The translations under genes were made by a program, and so were the position numbers. A DNA stretch of 28,240 bases from Candidatus Zixiibacteriota bacterium (GTDB taxonomy: Bacteria; Zixibacteria; MSB-5A5; GN15; FEB-12). The stretch's first letter is position 1. Every line of letters begins with the position of its first letter. Under the pieces are notes generated by a model. It made no database searches. It was not told the origin of the DNA and worked only from the letters and a program-made list of their open reading frames with translations. Of this stretch, positions 4,644 to 15,848 are shown one piece after another. The stretch is from NCBI GenBank assembly GCA_016213305.1, contig JACRAV010000403.1, positions 1-28,240 on the forward strand, in the 5' to 3' direction.

Positions 4644-4666
4644 CATGGATTCGCGTATTATCGTTC

Positions 4667-7012
4667 TCAGTAGGGATTGCCGCAAATCACGGGTCCCATC
4701 ATAAATACATAGTCAATCAAGCGGGTCAGATCGGAGATATCGACCAGGTTGTCGCAGTCACAGTCTCCCACCAAGAACGTGGGCTTCGCCGGAAGTCCCC
4801 CCATGTAAAGATATTCTATCAGAGCGGTGACATCGGAAATATCCATCCATCCATCCCAGTCCACATCACACCTAAATCTCCAGACTCGGAGTTCAACCGG
4901 CACGAGAGCGGGAGAGTTGGTGGCTCCGGCCGACGATACTCGAATTGTGTCATAGTAGGTACCGAGCGTATAGCCGGGGGCATCGACGAGTATCCCCACA
5001 TCAGCGGGCACATCGCCGCTGTCGGCACGTAGTTGGAGCCAGGAGGCCTGATGGGAGAGTGTCCACGGCATGCAACCGCCGTACTTATTGTCGATGGGCA
5101 GGATTCCCACGCCCTGTGGTCCGATATCTTCCTGATATGCGACGATCGTTGGCCCTCTTCCCAGAACAATTTCGGGCGTCTCTGTCCCGCCAATTCGATT
5201 GTACTGCACCACAATCAGTCGCGGGTTGTTGATGGCGTTGCGGGAGATCACCCAGATCGAATCGTAATAGGTTCCCGGCACGAGATCGGGGTCCAGGGCG
5301 GTAAGTCTGAAAGTGGCGGGCGCCACGGCGCTGTCTTTGTTGATAGTGAATAAGTCCGAAGCATACACCAGCCGGACCGCCATGGGGTCATCGCCGCCGG
5401 AGTTCTGGACCGAGAGGGTTTTGAAGGGAAGTGACTTTCCAAACCCCTGCGAACACTCATAGACATTAAATTTGATGGTGTCGTCGGACAAGCCGATCAC
5501 CGCAGGGAATTCGACAAACCTCAGCGTTATCACCACGGGAAACGGCGAGTTGATCGCCTGTGCGGAGGTTATCCAGATCGTGTCGGTAACCTGCATGCCA
5601 TCGTGGGCGCTCGACATTTTGTAGCGGACCTCGATTTTCTGGGGTGTCGAGCCGGTGTCGGGAACCAGCCCCAGAATGCGGGTCGCGTTTTCGGACGCCC
5701 TGAAATCGAGTTGTCCGGCCCCGGCGTTTCGAATGGTCACAAAGCGGGAAAAGAGAATCAATTCACTCAAATTCACGACGAAGAAATTGTACTGGGAGTC
5801 GGCCGCGATGATGGGAAGGTTTGATCCCATCTGCAGTATCACCGGAACCTTTACCGGATTGTTGACCGCGGTGGGGTCTGATACGACAATGGTATCCTTG
5901 TAGGTTCCATAGGTGAGGCCGGTAATATCGACCGACGCGCTTACGCTGGTGGAGTCGGTTCCTGATGACGGCGTGACCGAGAGCCACGGCTGGGCGTGAG
6001 TAAGAGTCCAATTGAGCGTTGATCCGGGATTACCGTTCTTCACGACCAGGGACTTGGGAATCGGGTTTGCTCCTCCCACCACCCCGCTGAAGAACAATTG
6101 CGACGGGGAGACACTGATCTGCGGCGGAGGCGGCGTGATGGCAAGTTTTGCGTACACAATCTGCGGCGAGTTGATCGCTTTGTTTGACTCTATGATGAGC
6201 GAATCAAAGTACGAGCCGATAGGCAACGCGGTGGGGTTGATGCTCACCGTTATGGTCGCGGGGGTGTTGCCCAGGGCGGGGCTTTTCAGAATCCACGAGG
6301 AGTTCTCCGAAACCGTAAATGGCACGGAGTTGGGCGTGGCAGTGATGCTGAAGGTCTGGGACGGCGGTGCGGAAGCGCCGTACACCATTGAAAATGCCAG
6401 AGTGTCGGGAATCACGTCGAGCACAGAAGGCGGCACATAGTCAACATCGTGAATAATCTTCCGGCCGGTCCACCAGGGCCGATAACTTTTGAGACTGTCG
6501 TCCACGAATTTGAAAGTCACGCCGTTGTTATAGGTGTTGGTGTCGAGGATGATCGAATCGTTGACGGTCCAGGAACTCAGGGAAAAGTAGTACCGGCACC
6601 AGAGTCGCCGGCTCGGCTCGGGCAGAACACCGGTGGCGGAGCTTCGTGCCCCGACAAACGGAAACCGCTTGTTGGTGTTGGTGAGATTGATGCTGTTCCC
6701 TTCATACGTGAAGTGGGCAAAGTCGAAGGCATCGAAAGCGAGAGTGGAAAAGCGGGCGCTGTCCATTTTCAAGTTCGGGTTAATCCAGCCGAACCCGGCG
6801 GCGGCCGCTCCGACGGTGCTGGAGTCGTTGAACGCATACAGATCGAGCCGGACCTTGAGCTGTCCGGTCGCCGCCCGCGGAATCACGGCGACCACCATGT
6901 CAACGGTGTCGGTGCTTCCCTTGTCGTAGGGATCGTGCCATTGAGCCTGGGCGGCGGCCGCCCACAGCAGAACCATTCCGCCCCAGATCAGTCTCACACT
7001 CACCTTTTTCAT
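4667..7012 (-). CDS. Secreted non-catalytic protein: N-terminal beta domain (cohesin-like?), five BACON-like Ig repeats, C-terminal dockerin-like domain
   Basis: Signal peptide (…WAAAAQA/QW); five ~100-aa repeats ending GxYxD(T/S)IxxxSxxA(I/V/T)N(S/N)P; C-terminus CDVDWDGWMDISDVTALIEYL…DCDCDNLVDISDLTRLIDY. GGAGG SD. Confidence 0.8.
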   Translation of the reverse strand: MKKVSVRLIWGGMVLLWAAAAQAQWHDPYDKGSTDTVDMVVAVIPRAATGQLKVRLDLYAFNDSSTVGAAAAGFGWINPNLKMDSARFSTLAFDAFDFAHFTYEGNSINLTNTNKRFPFVGARSSATGVLPEPSRRLWCRYYFSLSSWTVNDSIILDTNTYNNGVTFKFVDDSLKSYRPWWTGRKIIHDVDYVPPSVLDVIPDTLAFSMVYGASAPPSQTFSITATPNSVPFTVSENSSWILKSPALGNTPATITVSINPTALPIGSYFDSLIIESNKAINSPQIVYAKLAITPPPPQISVSPSQLFFSGVVGGANPIPKSLVVKNGNPGSTLNWTLTHAQPWLSVTPSSGTDSTSVSASVDITGLTYGTYKDTIVVSDPTAVNNPVKVPVILQMGSNLPIIAADSQYNFFVVNLSELILFSRFVTIRNAGAGQLDFRASENATRILGLVPDTGSTPQKIEVRYKMSSAHDGMQVTDTIWITSAQAINSPFPVVITLRFVEFPAVIGLSDDTIKFNVYECSQGFGKSLPFKTLSVQNSGGDDPMAVRLVYASDLFTINKDSAVAPATFRLTALDPDLVPGTYYDSIWVISRNAINNPRLIVVQYNRIGGTETPEIVLGRGPTIVAYQEDIGPQGVGILPIDNKYGGCMPWTLSHQASWLQLRADSGDVPADVGILVDAPGYTLGTYYDTIRVSSAGATNSPALVPVELRVWRFRCDVDWDGWMDISDVTALIEYLYMGGLPAKPTFLVGDCDCDNLVDISDLTRLIDYVFMMGPVICGNPY

Positions 7013-7276: not shown

Positions 7277-9757
<2,481 letters not shown>

Positions 9758-9890
9758 CTACTTAGATATCGGCTGTAAGGGCCGATTCTCCCAGCCCAAG
9801 TACCTTCAACGCCCGACCCTTGTCAACGACTAACTCGCAACTTCAACAAGTCGCCGTAAGCATATAAACAACAACGCACTACGGTAACTA

Positions 9891-12548
9891 CTACTGGACG
9901 GTCGTCAGACTCCGAATCTCATAGTCCGGGTGACTCTTCAAATTCTCGACATTGATCTGGATTCTGCCCGGGTCAATGTCCAGCCGGTAGTACCCCAGCC
10001 GGTTGTTTTCGATAATCGGCCAGTCGGCCCGCAGTTCGGCGTTGATCTCATTCTTCATCCGGTAGAGGTACCGCGCCTGATTGAAGCCGATTTCGATATC
10101 GTCCTTGTACACCCACCCGGCGGGCTGTTGTCGCCGCCACCAGGCAAGCTTGGCGAAATACTTGAACGACTTGCCGGTCAGGCGGACGGGAAACCCGTTG
10201 ATCTTCACCAGATACCGGTCGTGTTCGCAGGACCCGTCGATCTCCACCAGTTCCGGGGTAAACCCGATGGTCTGCGAATTGAGCGTCATGGTTTTCATGT
10301 CAACCTCCTCTTGAATATCACACAATTTCATAGTGAGCCGTGCGGCTCGGTTTTTGTCTTTGATGAGTTGTGCCAGCCGTTCTTGCGACAGGCCGGCCAG
10401 CGCGCTTACGCTGTCGAGGCCGTCGGTCTGAAGGGCCAGCATATCGGCACGGGTAAGGATTTCACCGACCGCCCGGTGCAGATCGGCCAATTTGGGCGGC
10501 AGACCGTGGCGCACGCTGAAGGCCAGATCGCGCAGGAGCGGCACATTGGGATTATCGAGATCGTCCGCCTCTATCAGCGAGGCCAGGCCGCGACAGAGAT
10601 GAGCGGCGGTCTCCCCCAGCGAAAGAATCTGCCCCAGATGCAGTTGGTACCGTTCTTCGAGTTTCTGCACGGGCACAAGCCGGCGCCAGTCTTCGAGCAA
10701 GAGCAATCCTTTGAGTGATGCGGACAATCGATAAGACAGGGGCTGGCGGCGATGATTCTCCGGCAGAAGCGGCACCGCCTCTTCGACCGAGTGGTCGAAC
10801 CTCTGATACAGCATTTTCACCGGCAGATTCTGCCGATGCTCAATCCGGGTGAGCATTCCGGGGACCAGCGGCCAGTCGGGAGCGGAAAGCGCGAGGGCAA
10901 GCCAGCCGAATTCCGATTCCGGTGATCTGCGAGCCACCTGTGTCCGCAATTTAGCCGCCTGCCGAACCGACAGTCCGGTGATGGCGACGGCGCGTCCGCG
11001 AGGTGTAACAATCAGGGTATTATCATCGCCGTCAGATCGAATACAGCCACGGCGCTCCAGCGCCCGCACGACGGCCGCCCAATCGAGGTGAGTGTCTCCT
11101 TGAAGCCGGGCATGGAGTGTCCGGGCGTACAGATTCTTCAAATCAGATTCCGATGTAGCCAGACCGCAGACACACATGCCGAGCGCCCAATCTTCCGGCG
11201 GAAGCGAGTCGAACGCCGACGAGAGTCTTTCACTGTCCTGAGAATCGGCGAACGCCACATAACTTTCCCAGAGGATGTCGCGATCAAACTCCGAGCCGGC
11301 GAGCACGATGGCTTTGCCGGGACCGTCGGCGTTCAGCCCCAGCCGACCGGCCCGACCGCACATATTTTCAAACTCGGCGCGGCTGATCGGCGCGAGTGAG
11401 GCGCGGTCATCGTAGGCGCCGACGACGAATTTCACGGTTTCCAGATAGACGGTGTCCACGGGCAGATTGACGCCCATAGCCAGCGTCGTGGTGGCGACCA
11501 GAACGCGCACCTCTCCCCGCGTGAACGCCTCCTCGACAATCCGGCGTTGACGCGGCGAAAGGTCCGAGTTGTGAAAGGCCACTCCACGACTCATCGCCTG
11601 CGACAGGGAACGAACAAGAAAGGACGGCTCCTCGGCGCTCAGTTCCTCAAGGGCGGTTTTGGCCGGGGGAAAAGAAGCGGATGCGGCCAGGCGAAAGGCC
11701 AGATCGACGGTGTTCTGCCGTGATTTCAGAAAGACCAGCGTGGAACCTTCCGTCTGTTTGATCTGGTCGATAAGCCCGTCGATCATGCCGTCAACCGTTT
11801 CGCCAAACGGACAGGCGGTGTTGGTTACCGCTCCGGTGTTGAACGAGCGGAAGCGAATCGATTTTTCGGCCGCCACCCCGACCAGCAGATCGACCGGCCG
11901 CACGGCTTCTTCGACGACGGTCGCGCCAAGCCATTCCCCCAGCTTGGTGAGGGAGTCGCCTCCGAGCACGGCGGAGAGGCCGACCAGCGAGGGTCTGTAG
12001 GTGGAAGAGTTGATACGGGTCAGCAGGCGTTCCAGCACCGCTCCCCGTCGCGGGACGCCGAGCATCTGCAATTCATCAACGACCACCAGACCGATATTGG
12101 CCAGCGCGTCCAGTTCGGTCGTCAACAGCAGGTCGAATTTTTCGTAGATCGACACCGCCAGCTGATAATCACCGCGCAGGAACGCCTCGTCGTTTTCGCT
12201 CCGATCGCCGGTGGCGATCAGGCATTTGACGCCCAGCCCGCCGAAGAGCGCTTCGAATATCCGGTACTTTTCTTCGGCCAGAGATTTCAGGGGAAACAAC
12301 AGCGCCACTTTGCGACGCTCGGCGAGCGCTTTGGCGGCCACCAGTTCGGCGCAGAATGATTTGCCCGACGAGGTCGGCGCGGCGATAATCATCCGCATGC
12401 CGCCGTCGGCGCTACTCCCCGGCTGTCCCAGCAGACCGGCGCGGATCGCCCGTTTCTGCACCGACAGAAGGGTCTCCCCCTGGCGTTGCCGCCAGTTTTC
12501 GATAACCCGTTTTGGGATTCCGTATCGATCCAGTTCCTCAAGTCGCAT
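9891..12548 (-). CDS. Ski2/Hel308-like SF2 helicase with an extra C-terminal winged-helix domain
   Basis: APTSSGKS, PLKSLAEEK, VVDELQ, LSA, GVAFHNSDL, ATTTLAMGVNLP, NMCGRAGR. The likely start is ATG 12548 (MRLEELDRYGIP, SD AAGGAAGGGG); the track's 12716 start overlaps the upstream small ORF. Confidence 0.9.
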   Translation of the reverse strand: MRLEELDRYGIPKRVIENWRQRQGETLLSVQKRAIRAGLLGQPGSSADGGMRMIIAAPTSSGKSFCAELVAAKALAERRKVALLFPLKSLAEEKYRIFEALFGGLGVKCLIATGDRSENDEAFLRGDYQLAVSIYEKFDLLLTTELDALANIGLVVVDELQMLGVPRRGAVLERLLTRINSSTYRPSLVGLSAVLGGDSLTKLGEWLGATVVEEAVRPVDLLVGVAAEKSIRFRSFNTGAVTNTACPFGETVDGMIDGLIDQIKQTEGSTLVFLKSRQNTVDLAFRLAASASFPPAKTALEELSAEEPSFLVRSLSQAMSRGVAFHNSDLSPRQRRIVEEAFTRGEVRVLVATTTLAMGVNLPVDTVYLETVKFVVGAYDDRASLAPISRAEFENMCGRAGRLGLNADGPGKAIVLAGSEFDRDILWESYVAFADSQDSERLSSAFDSLPPEDWALGMCVCGLATSESDLKNLYARTLHARLQGDTHLDWAAVVRALERRGCIRSDGDDNTLIVTPRGRAVAITGLSVRQAAKLRTQVARRSPESEFGWLALALSAPDWPLVPGMLTRIEHRQNLPVKMLYQRFDHSVEEAVPLLPENHRRQPLSYRLSASLKGLLLLEDWRRLVPVQKLEERYQLHLGQILSLGETAAHLCRGLASLIEADDLDNPNVPLLRDLAFSVRHGLPPKLADLHRAVGEILTRADMLALQTDGLDSVSALAGLSQERLAQLIKDKNRAARLTMKLCDIQEEVDMKTMTLNSQTIGFTPELVEIDGSCEHDRYLVKINGFPVRLTGKSFKYFAKLAWWRRQQPAGWVYKDDIEIGFNQARYLYRMKNEINAELRADWPIIENNRLGYYRLDIDPGRIQINVENLKSHPDYEIRSLTTVQ

Positions 12549-12567: not shown

Positions 12568-12789
12568 TCAGACGCTACAACTTTCAAAGCCACACCCCGG
12601 GCAGGAAAAACACCCGCCGAGCCGAACCATCCCGCCACCGCAATCGGGACACGAAGCGGCGTTCTGATAGGCGCAGTCGGAGACCGGCGGCGGACCATAC
12701 GGATTGCCGCCATCAAAATTGGTCAGATACAAGAGCGCTCCGTGTCCTTCGGAGGCAACCATCCCAAACTCCAGATTCAGATTCTGCAT
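12568..12789 (-). CDS. Small zinc-ribbon protein (73 aa) resembling the NrdJ C-terminal Zn-finger
   Basis: MQNLNLEFG…CPDCGGGMVRLGGCFSCPGCGFESCSV; AGGAG SD before ATG 12789; stop 19 nt before the helicase start. Confidence 0.75.
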   Translation of the reverse strand: MQNLNLEFGMVASEGHGALLYLTNFDGGNPYGPPPVSDCAYQNAASCPDCGGGMVRLGGCFSCPGCGFESCSV

Positions 12790-12834
12790 ATGCTCGCTCC
12801 TTTCGGGCCTTTTCCTGATATCGGCCTCGCAAAC

Positions 12835-12863
12835 ATGATACTGCACATTTGTGCAGGTGTCAA
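12835..12863 (-). promoter_or_regulatory. sigma70-type promoter of the Zn-ribbon/helicase operon
   Basis: TTGACA (12863-12858)-N17-TATCAT (12840-12835). Confidence 0.8.
12841..12856. promoter_or_regulatory. Palindromic operator, putative LexA (SOS) box
   Basis: CTGCACA-TT-TGTGCAG fills the -35/-10 spacer and contains TGCAC-N4-GTGCA, matching the TGCNC-N4-GTGCA LexA motif I recall for Fibrobacter succinogenes. Confidence 0.7.
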
Positions 12864-13017: not shown

Positions 13018-13731
13018 TCAATTCAGGCGAAACACCACCGGATAGGTGACCCAAACCGCTATCGGATGACCGTTCTGGATGGCCGGACGGTAGCGGCACA
13101 ATCTCGCGGAGTTGACTGCCGCGATATCGAGGCACTCCAGACCCGACGACACCAAAACCACGACCTTTCGCACTCCTCCCTCTTTGTCCACCAGCACCTG
13201 AAGCGTGACCCGCCCCTCAAGCCCGGCTCGGATCGCCTGGGGCGGGTAGTCCGGTTTGACTTCGCGAATCATTACCGGAAGTGAATCGCACGGGACAAAC
13301 ACGGTGGGATCGAGAAGCAACTCCGTTTGCCCGGGATCGACCGAAAGTGATGAATCACCGATGCCGATCGAGCTATCGAGGCCGGATCCAATAGCGCGTT
13401 CCTCCCGGGTCGGAATCGGATCAGTCTCGGGGGAGTCGTCAACAGGAACCGGAATGATGGCGTGATCAACGGGTGGTTTGGTATGACCGCCGGGTTGGGG
13501 GGTCGGCGGTATGATCCTGGGCGGAGGAGGGATTTCGACACGGCTCTCATGGCGAGGTTGCAACGGCGAGATTACGACGGTCTGGCCTTTCGGAATGACA
13601 CTCCATACCGCAAGCCCCAGCCCGATCAAGATGAGAACCAGCATCTGGGCCATCAAGAGGTTTGCCTGATACCGGGCTTTCAACTCATAGGCGCCGTATC
13701 GGTAGTACAGGGTGGAGTTTGATCCGTTCAT
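13018..13731 (-). CDS. tonB: Energy transducer TonB (second paralog)
   Basis: N-terminal YGAYELK motif, one TM, Pro-rich linker, TonB-C (KPDYP…EGRVTLQVLVDKEG…YRPAIQNGHPI). GGAGG SD. Confidence 0.88.
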   Translation of the reverse strand: MNGSNSTLYYRYGAYELKARYQANLLMAQMLVLILIGLGLAVWSVIPKGQTVVISPLQPRHESRVEIPPPPRIIPPTPQPGGHTKPPVDHAIIPVPVDDSPETDPIPTREERAIGSGLDSSIGIGDSSLSVDPGQTELLLDPTVFVPCDSLPVMIREVKPDYPPQAIRAGLEGRVTLQVLVDKEGGVRKVVVLVSSGLECLDIAAVNSARLCRYRPAIQNGHPIAVWVTYPVVFRLN

Positions 13732-13860
13732 CTTTCATTCCTCCTTCGAGAATACAGTCCGAAAGCGAAATGCTTCCGTGGGCCTTCAGTATTTTGACGG
13801 ATGGAGTGAGCGATTTGTTTAGGAAATAAGATAGCCCGCGCGCGGCGCTCGCGCCCCACG

Positions 13861-13897
13861 AAAATAACAAACCCCCTCGCGTTTGGCGAGAGAGGGT
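13861..13897 (-). terminator. Probable terminator between the two tonB genes
   Basis: Minus strand CTCTCTCGC-caaac-GCGAGGGGG (with G-U pairs) followed by tttgttatttt. Confidence 0.6.
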
Positions 13898-13924
13898 CTG
13901 CGTTACATTTATCGGATCAGCGGG

Positions 13925-14659
13925 TCAACCGCCGGCGTTAAGATTGAACCGACAGGGGTAGGTCACCCAGCAAGCCACCGGTCTTCCATTCTGAATAGCG
14001 GGTTTGTACTTGCAGAGCGGCGCGGCCTTGACGGCGGCGTCATCAAGCGACGGTGTGCCGGATGACTTGGCCAGTTTGGCATCGCGAACATTACCGTCCT
14101 TGTCCACCAGAGCCATCACCCACACGGTTCCTTCAATACCCGCTTGCTTCGCCAGCCGGGGATATTCCGGCTTAACCTCTTTGATCATCTCGGGCTGGAC
14201 TTCGACCGCCACAAATTCGCCGGCGGCCGGAAGGTACTCGTCCTCCTTGATGTCGACCTTGATATCTCCCCCGTCGCCGGCCGAGATATCGGGCGGCACG
14301 ATATCAGCCAGTTCTTCGCGGGTGGCCAGCACGACATCGTCGTTGGGAGCATCTTCATCAGCCACGGGTGTCGGGATACCGACTTTGGGCACGGCCACGT
14401 TCGGCTGGGTCACTTTGACTTGCGGCGGTTTCTGGACAATAGTCGGCGGCGGGCCAAGCTCGGCAATCGTCTTGATGACCGTGGGGGCCATGAAGACCTC
14501 CTCCGATCCCTTGATCAACTGAACGATCCAGGCCGTCAGCAGAACAACCACGACCAGCGACACGGCCAGACCGGTCGCGGTGGCGAAGTTCTTCTGATAC
14601 TTTTCCTTTAGCTCATAGGCGCCGTACGGCGTATATGTCGCATTGTTGGGACCAATCAT
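13925..14659 (-). CDS. tonB: Energy transducer TonB
   Basis: YGAYELK, TM, ELGPPP Pro-rich linker, TonB-C (KPEYP…EGTVWV…YKPAIQNGRPV); starts 2 nt after the exbD stop. Confidence 0.9.
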   Translation of the reverse strand: MIGPNNATYTPYGAYELKEKYQKNFATATGLAVSLVVVVLLTAWIVQLIKGSEEVFMAPTVIKTIAELGPPPTIVQKPPQVKVTQPNVAVPKVGIPTPVADEDAPNDDVVLATREELADIVPPDISAGDGGDIKVDIKEDEYLPAAGEFVAVEVQPEMIKEVKPEYPRLAKQAGIEGTVWVMALVDKDGNVRDAKLAKSSGTPSLDDAAVKAAPLCKYKPAIQNGRPVACWVTYPCRFNLNAGG

Positions 14660-14661
14660 AA

Positions 14662-15312
14662 TTACAACTGTCCTTTCGACCGGGCCAGGGCCTCCGCTTC
14701 GGCCATAATCTTGTCATCCCGGTCATCCCAGTCGCCGACCGCGTACCGGTAGGAGAATTTCTGATCTTTCGGAATGTCGTCTATCTTCGCGAGATTCAGT
14801 TGTTTTCTGGTGTACTCGTTCCAGGCGCGCTCGATGACGTCGATCTCGTCGAGGATATTCACCATGTCGGAGTACATGGCATCTTTGTGAATGAGGATGA
14901 GGGTGTTCAACTTGGGATTCTCGCGGTTCAGGCCGGTGAGCATATGCTGAACGCTGTCCGGATTGTAAGCATATTCGACACTATCGGGTTTGTTCTTGGA
15001 ACTGGGGATCAGATTGGGCATGTTGTCGGACCCGATCTGTCCGGTGTGCCACCAGAAGCGGCCCTTGGCGTCGACATGAATCGTGAGCACATTTTTCGCG
15101 GCGATGTCGATTTTGACGTCATCGTCCGGTGGGAGGTTGATCTCCATGGCCTGCGGCATGGCGAACACGGTGGTCACCATGTAGAAAATCAAAAGCAGAA
15201 AGGCGATATCCACCATCGGGGTCATGTCGATGCGCACCCCGACCCGCCGTTTGGGACGTCTCAGTCCTTTCTTATGGCCTTTTGCCGCGCGTTCTACTAC
15301 ATCGCCTGCCAT
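14662..15312 (-). CDS. exbD: Biopolymer transporter ExbD/TolR (long form)
   Basis: IDMTPMVDIAFLLLIFYMVTT with the conserved TM Asp; IHKDAMYSDMVNILDEI. Confidence 0.9.
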   Translation of the reverse strand: MAGDVVERAAKGHKKGLRRPKRRVGVRIDMTPMVDIAFLLLIFYMVTTVFAMPQAMEINLPPDDDVKIDIAAKNVLTIHVDAKGRFWWHTGQIGSDNMPNLIPSSKNKPDSVEYAYNPDSVQHMLTGLNRENPKLNTLILIHKDAMYSDMVNILDEIDVIERAWNEYTRKQLNLAKIDDIPKDQKFSYRYAVGDWDDRDDKIMAEAEALARSKGQL

Positions 15313-15368
15313 CTATACTCACTCTCCTCTGCGCCCGCCGGACTGGCCGGACGGACGGATCAAATGTC

Positions 15369-15848
15369 TTATCCCTTACCCGATTCGCGTTCCGGATCGG
15401 TAATGATCAGGAAGCGTTCGAGGTGGTTCTCCTGCATTTTCTTCATCACGGTCTGCATGACGCCGAACGTGGCGCGACCATCGGCTTTCACCACCACCAG
15501 CGCCTTGATATTCTTGGCGCGGGCGCGGAGGATTTCCGAGGCCACGTTGTACTGGTCGCAGACGCGCACCCGGCGGCCGGTGGTCTCGACATCCTGGCCG
15601 TCGATATTCACTCTCACCTTCTCCACGTAGTCGACATACAGCGAGTCGAACTTGGTCACCGTGATACTGATGATGTCCTTGTCCGGCAGTTCGATCTGCG
15701 AGTGCGACTGGGGCAGTTCCACCGCCCGGGCTTCCGGTGGTTTGAACTGGGTGGTCGACATATAGAATATGAGCAACAGAAAGGCGACATCGACCATCGG
15801 AGTCATGTCGATCCGGATGGAGACCCGCCGTTTCTTCTTGATACCCAT
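15369..15848 (-). CDS. exbD: Biopolymer transporter ExbD/TolR
   Basis: IDMTPMVDVAFLLLIFYM; VVKADGRATFGVMQTVM. Confidence 0.92.
   Translation of the reverse strand: MGIKKKRRVSIRIDMTPMVDVAFLLLIFYMSTTQFKPPEARAVELPQSHSQIELPDKDIISITVTKFDSLYVDYVEKVRVNIDGQDVETTGRRVRVCDQYNVASEILRARAKNIKALVVVKADGRATFGVMQTVMKKMQENHLERFLIITDPERESGKG

Follow-up and report, generated by a model that had tools for sequence, protein, structure and literature searches.

An internal ribosome-binding site within a Hel308-like helicase gene of Zixibacteria is conserved and very probably yields a free winged-helix protein

Introduction

Why does a helicase gene carry, close to its 3' end and in its own reading frame, what looks like a complete ribosome-binding site? 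The question is raised by a locus in a stretch of 28,240 nucleotides from Candidatus Zixiibacteriota (hereafter the window), in which a helicase ORF continues into a C-terminal domain of 135 amino acids. A previous sequence-only reading of this DNA offered two answers, namely a recent gene fusion or one gene making two products, the full helicase and a free DNA-binding domain that could regulate it. Here we examine both products, the internal start and its distribution in the phylum, and the control of the operon.

Results

The long product is a Hel308-like helicase

The helicase gene occupies positions 9891–12548 of the minus strand, with a likely main start at ATG 12548 and a TAG stop codon at 9893–9891, and encodes a protein of 885 amino acids (98 kDa). 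Residues 1–744 match PRK02362 (E 1e-82) and the archaeal Hel308 2va8 (E 2.5e-51), and both the sequence match and the full-length model (pLDDT 92) indicate a RecA1-RecA2-WH-ratchet-HhH body that is nearest to Hel308. The 94 helicase orthologues retain Walker A, the DE pair and GRAGR, with motif VI reading N/S-M-x-GRAGR. Motif II of the Hel308/Hjm family is DExH. In the orthologues it is DE(L/I)Q instead (DELQ in 46, DEIQ in 32, DEVQ in 4 and DELH in 1), and the curated equivalog cut-offs of NCBIfam are missed as well (278 vs 887 and 203 vs 1200). The Zixibacteria helicase is thus Hel308-like, yet it is no strict member of Hel308. Hel308 has been described as a five-domain protein ending in its HhH domain (PMC13623763), which agrees with the earlier statement that it carries no winged-helix tail.

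A role as a Ski2-helicase defence system was considered and rejected: matches to the defence helicases Hachiman HamB and BREX BrxHI are confined to helicase-core stretches, the gene is near-universal and single-copy, and its neighbours are TonB/ExbD genes and Lon.

The tail adopts a predicted OmpR-type fold

The tail, starting at Met751 (positions 9891–10298, minus strand), has a mass of 16.0 kDa and a pI of 8.7. Its model (pLDDT 90) is predicted to follow the OmpR/PhoB layout of an N-terminal beta-sheet, three helices and a C-terminal beta-hairpin wing, with two additional C-terminal helices. The 30 best structural matches are OmpR/PhoB or SARP DNA-binding domains throughout, led by BaeR (Z 10.3, rmsd 2.6, 90 residues), and EmbR and AfsR align with residues 15–135, additional helices included (Z 6.5 and 6.4). 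A Foldseek search gave the same OmpR-type outcome with weak E-values. No profile from Pfam, NCBIfam, PHROGs or PADLOC scored above cut-off against the tail; Trans_reg_C (PF00486) stayed below it, with one homologue out of 69 reaching E 0.011. An hhalign comparison with three OmpR domains from the genome gave probabilities under 1% and, the template being thin, carries no weight here. The earlier assignment to the OmpR/PhoB type is therefore borne out by structure and not by sequence profiles. The tail has an OmpR fold without PF00486 membership and belongs to an unnamed family that includes stand-alone proteins of phages.

Ten residues of the tail are invariant (N73, Q74, R76, Y77, Y79, R80, R100, G102, Y104 and R105), and in the model they map to the predicted recognition helix and the wing. 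Mean conservation is 0.67 in the tail and 0.63 and 0.61 in the RecA domains. Column conservation falls to 0.30 in the linker (residues 746–766), which includes the only stretch of the full-length model with pLDDT below 50, residues 753–761 (10266–10292, minus strand), shortly after Met751.

An internal start is conserved in the linker

The internal ribosome-binding site spans positions 10296–10310 of the minus strand and consists of the Shine-Dalgarno (SD) sequence GAGGAGG (10310–10304), the 5-nt spacer TTGAC (10303–10299) and ATG (10298–10296) in the helicase frame, which confirms the coordinates of the in-frame 135-aa segment that had been reported. We scanned the 55 codons ahead of the tail domain with a strict rule (AGGAG or GGAGG, 4–8 nt, ATG). 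The motif is present in 108 of 131 unique orthologous loci compared with 4 of 1163 windows of the same size taken from other parts of these genes, counts which are not independent since the genomes are related. It is found in 94/102 loci of a closer set (mostly of the same order) and in 14/29 loci from other orders. Site and start codon are kept down to 31% protein identity, and in orthologues that are 31–35% identical the SD persists where the adjacent linker is unalignable.

The conservation extends to codon choice. When E-x-x-M cases were chosen independently of the SD, the Glu codon was GAG in 105/112 linker cases vs 48/94 cases elsewhere. The sites chosen by the SD rule carry some bias for that reason; at 107/108 of them codon -4 encodes E, K or Q and has AG as its last two letters, whereas codon -5, which favours AAA, ends that way in only 8/66. 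Residue -4 ranges over E, K, Q and L while AG stays, a start codon stays exactly two codons past GAG, and GTG replaces ATG in four orthologues. Codons 741–749 form the top peak of synonymous conservation in the gene (0.69; mean 0.07, sd 0.08). The site lies in an A/U-rich, unstructured patch where GC drops from about 0.55 to 0.33 and the folding energy of 40-nt segments is -2.7 instead of about -8 kcal/mol. Pairing energies computed against the standard anti-SD are -13.1 kcal/mol for the internal site and -8.4 kcal/mol for the main start of this gene, and the internal SD outpairs the main one in 63/83 genes.

Between 2 and 45 residues separate the internal start from the tail core, depending on the orthologue. 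In the full-length model the start coincides with a domain boundary, and both the model of the tail and the natural stand-alone versions suggest that the product could fold alone. An in-frame SD and start codon, conserved beyond protein constraint, give us high confidence that the internal start is real, and a free short product is very probably made besides the helicase. The proposal of one gene with two products is in this respect strongly supported by the conservation of SD and start codon.

The operon is probably under LexA control

A sigma70-type promoter, TTGACA (12863–12858), a 17-nt spacer and TATCAT (12840–12835), is located at 12835–12863 on the minus strand. Its spacer is filled by the palindrome CTGCACA-AA-TGTGCAG (12841–12856), a probable LexA (SOS) box. 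The first gene of the operon (12568–12789, minus strand) encodes a 73-aa zinc-ribbon miniprotein (CxxC...CxxC; PRK08665, E 8e-5) that resembles the C-terminus of class II ribonucleotide reductase and is encoded upstream of most orthologues. The same order, a TTGACA-17-TANNNT promoter with spacer palindrome followed by zinc-ribbon gene and helicase, is seen phylum-wide. Families f8, f13, f14, f15 and f18 have neither the zinc-ribbon gene nor the internal start; f16 has the zinc-ribbon gene and lacks the start.

Genomes that have the perfect palindrome contain about one copy of it. The same palindrome and layout were found at 20/25 chromosomal lexA loci, and the two best sites of the genome are those of the helicase operon and lexA. 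Since the operator is also present at the lexA promoter, the operon is probably SOS-controlled, with LexA as its probable regulator. The LexA box of Fibrobacter succinogenes (TGCNC-N4-GTGCA) presumably represents the same palindrome pattern. It differs in context, as the palindrome was not found in the recA promoters of these genomes and the regulon found comprises lexA, often with a dinB-like gene after it, and the helicase operon. A sigma70-like promoter inside the helicase gene was seen in 0/93 cases, suggesting that the short form is probably translated from the same mRNA as the long one.

Several further features were observed around these sites. In several Zixibacteria (L229, L233, L238, L244 and L250) a DinB/IMS-family polymerase gene comes after lexA, and one genome has a second perfect LexA-type box (L215:2087, G047:C50) 5' of a small phage-like ORF cluster. 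Upstream, the operon promoter adjoins a TonB/ExbD-like cluster with two TonB-like genes (13018–15848, minus strand). Downstream, a Lon-like gene with degenerate Walker motifs (7277–9757, minus strand) is a conserved neighbour in this order and apparently has its own promoter. Its Walker A ends in GKAS, its Walker B reads IEDLD and its Ser-Lys dyad motifs are intact, so that the protein is possibly ATPase-impaired. The sequence GCCGATA, which we take to be a sigma28-type -10 element, lies just 5' of this gene (about 9765–9772, minus strand) and is conserved in many relatives; CCGATA is also present in 37/93 operon leaders, here at about 12818–12825 (minus strand).

Two candidate targets of the tail were rejected. 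Autoregulation via the upstream palindrome does not fit the presence of the same motif and layout at lexA, nor the outcome of the search near stand-alone phage and archaeal homologues, where it was not found. The recA palindrome CTGACA-N5-TGTCAG is PafBC-like and absent at stand-alone loci. In 21/27 loci (L257–L283) N10-YA-N3-T extends its right half, in the manner of the PafBC motif (PMC8635444), which suggests that recA activation in Zixibacteria may be of WYL type. The genome encodes one WYL protein (C352). The recA-type motif also occurs ahead of a gene that resembles recG by eye; copies of the motif lie at G000:C172:679 and G000:C244:2356.

The fusion is phylum-wide and the start is confined to one branch

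The tail is present in 61/61 close relatives, in 268/285 genomes of the phylum and in 193/198 near-complete genomes, and it is nearly always fused. The gene is almost always single-copy, with an ORF of about 850–1000 codons away from contig ends. Fused helicases may be as little as 27% identical to the present one (range 27–35%), and the suggestion of a recent fusion does not survive this phylum-wide distribution. The comparison of fused and split orthologues that had been proposed together with a check of SD conservation therefore comes out as nearly all fused with a conserved SD. Split cases that were checked proved to be contig ends or error-prone long-read assemblies, and the apparent split orthologues L035 and L036/L059 were left out for this reason, coming from long-read assemblies with many broken genes.

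The internal start is present in families f1–f5, f9, f10, f19 and f20. It is absent at every examined locus in nine families that keep the fusion (f6, f7, f8 and f13–f18), and no second copy of the tail was found there in the genomes searched. That these nine families keep the fusion indicates that the motif is dispensable for the protein, and their lack of both start and second copy indicates that the short form is not required throughout the phylum. In a quick helicase tree one split (SH-aLRT 98) divides the families with the start from those without it. The former make up one branch, which corresponds to one gain or one loss.

Two independent lineages have lost the helicase and kept the tail. 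In G184 (L222, family f4) promoter and box are followed by a remnant of the linker helix, the SD, ATG, the tail and then Lon; synteny is the same, including the TonB/ExbD-like cluster, and the zinc ribbon and helicase are missing. The tail-only protein is identical in a second, independent assembly, and its domain clusters with fused f4 tails (support 90). In G202 (L141, family f11) promoter, box and zinc ribbon precede SD, ATG and the tail only. No helicase orthologue was found in G184 (77% complete) or G202 (95% complete), which indicates that the short product is kept without the motor. The earlier idea that the free domain regulates the helicase is accordingly weakened as a sole role, and may still hold as one role among others.

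Stand-alone relatives occur in phages and archaea

A profile search with the tail returned 527 representatives, many of them stand-alone proteins of 120–150 aa. Structural look-alikes in the atlas fall into unnamed clusters, one of which is 81% viral (TM 0.83). Among the contexts examined, stand-alone genes lie in phages or prophage-like regions (terminase and portal, RecT, ParB-methylase, ASCH, YopX, DUF5131). Others, in Nanoarchaeota MAGs (L031:5001-5450 and L033:5001-5456), lie beside cohesin/dockerin genes, a cohesin context which is also seen at L224:4001-4426; these three homologues are about 50% identical to the tail. Dockerin-type proteins are present in Zixibacteria too. The tail defines an unnamed family of putative DNA-binding proteins common to Zixibacteria and phages. 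The direction of transfer among phages, archaea and Zixibacteria was not recoverable from a tree of the winged-helix domains.

Many short Zixibacterial entries of the tail in databases come from short contigs or from close to the end of a contig, and probably represent incomplete genes whose start was called at the internal ATG. The predicted short protein is omitted by gene callers whenever the full-length gene is called.

We also considered the stand-alone proteins as phage late activators and keep this as no more than a lead: a packaging-type module follows the gene in L284 and L216 but not in L213, L214, L217 or L286, and further viral scans found nothing. On the phage contig L284 a parS-like palindrome, TGTTTCACGTGAAACA (about 4660–4680), separates the stand-alone winged-helix gene from the terminase module.

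Discussion

A model for two products from one mRNA

We favour, with some reservation, a reading in which one LexA-released mRNA gives two proteins and the free tail acts as an independent DNA-acting regulator that competes with the motor form. DNA damage would remove LexA, and the operon would then be transcribed, a step to which the operator strongly points. Translation from ATG 12548 would give the 98-kDa Hel308-like motor with its tail and translation from ATG 10298 the free 16-kDa tail, the internal site usually being the stronger of the two starts; conservation of this site argues strongly for the step. With moderate confidence, the free tail would be a sequence-specific DNA-binding regulator that does its work independently of the helicase, and it would most likely act as a second-tier transcription factor in the damage response. 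More tentatively, the binding surface common to both forms hints that the free tail might compete with the long form, the ratio of the two starts limiting helicase loading at the sites.

The short form might instead serve mainly to inhibit the long form by direct binding or mixed oligomers, as in RpnS/RpnL, with the purpose of restraining a potentially harmful helicase and with phage copies as mimics. The 3'-proximal in-frame start with a strong SD recalls the rpn genes (10.1101/2023.05.02.539157), the internal SD usually exceeds the main one, and stand-alone homologues reside in phage and prophage regions. We nevertheless regard this as unlikely, although deserving attention, since an inhibitor would hardly be kept in lineages that have no helicase or be dispensed with in nine families that have the long form. 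The tail is also highly conserved in comparison to the highly variable Rpn tails, no internal sigma70-like promoter uncouples its expression, and typical defence genes are not single-copy and near-universal as this gene is. Somewhat less probable still is that two products are made but that the winged helix serves as a protein-docking module (for RNA polymerase or a repair protein, for example) or binds DNA non-specifically. No target DNA motif was found near fused or stand-alone genes, the tail sequence is distant from Trans_reg_C, and the winged helices of ORC and ScpB also match its structure (Z about 5–6), all of which would suit such a module; but the best fold matches are only OmpR/SARP regulators (Z 6–10), and the predicted recognition helix and wing hold invariant Arg, Tyr, Asn and Gln residues.

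The remaining explanations dispense with a second product. It seems to us improbable that the gene yields the full-length protein alone, with the SD-like stretch as an interdomain ribosome pause signal or a by-product of an E-E-x-M linker. GAGGAG readily arises from Glu-Glu codons, but a linker by-product does not explain why the start codon is fixed in its place and may be GTG, or why AG persists at codon -4 through changes of residue next to a codon -5 that prefers AAA. The same fusion folds in families without the motif, and in the two deletion lineages an SD-ATG at the same position is the true start. We give hardly any credence to a recent fusion or a mis-assembled stop codon with the SD as leftover of a separate gene: stand-alone homologues do exist and the linker is flexible, but open frames of about 900 aa are found in nearly all 268 genomes, the SD outlasts an alignable linker, and the splits that were checked have trivial origins in assembly.

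Beyond the favoured reading, it is conceivable, although we hold it to be rather doubtful, that the locus reflects a two-tier damage response. LexA would control little beyond itself and this operon; the hidden gene would encode a free transcription factor representing a new winged-helix family, and the full-length protein would bring a Hel308 motor to the same sites. The tail would then be portable by virtue of its built-in ribosome-binding site and pass between Zixibacteria, phages and DPANN archaea. The arrangement of the gene suggests that a transcription-factor domain may guide a repair helicase. Apart from mechanism, the locus offers an internal start held in about ten families of an uncultured phylum, with a built-in negative control in the families that have the fusion and lack the start, and with two natural deletions that keep the short product alone.

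Comparison with known systems

The body of the long form (residues 1–744) shares its five-domain Ski2-like architecture with archaeal Hel308/Hjm (PDB 2va8, 2p6r, 2zj2) and HELQ. In contrast to archaeal Hel308, it is bacterial, probably LexA-controlled, and extended beyond the HhH domain by a winged helix with its own start. The tail shares the fold of OmpR/PhoB and SARP (EmbR, AfsR) DNA-binding domains, but it is only 8–20% identical to them, has no receiver or BTAD domain and no PF00486 match, and has a short loop ahead of the recognition helix.

Internal starts as such are already known. Most of those described in bacteria came to light by ribosome profiling of model organisms, and conservation is poor in many of them (10.1101/520783). 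Our literature search returned no title on the Zixibacteria helicase and no conserved helicase/regulator pair. The layout is similar to that of ArcB/ArcB-C of E. coli, in which a conserved in-frame 3'-proximal start at a domain boundary frees the C-terminal domain (10.1101/520783). The proteins are unrelated, and the domain of ArcB is a phosphotransfer domain whereas here a DNA-binding domain would be freed from a motor. RpnL/RpnS and Cas10d/Cas11d are similar in having a short C-terminal isoform, made from an internal start, of a DNA-acting enzyme; RpnS is highly variable, neutralises a toxin and belongs to mobile defence genes (10.1101/2023.05.02.539157). Neither a highly variable C-terminal domain nor a patchy mobile distribution is seen in the Zixibacteria gene. 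Its tail is, on the contrary, the most conserved part of the gene, single-copy and phylum-wide, and it outlives the long form.
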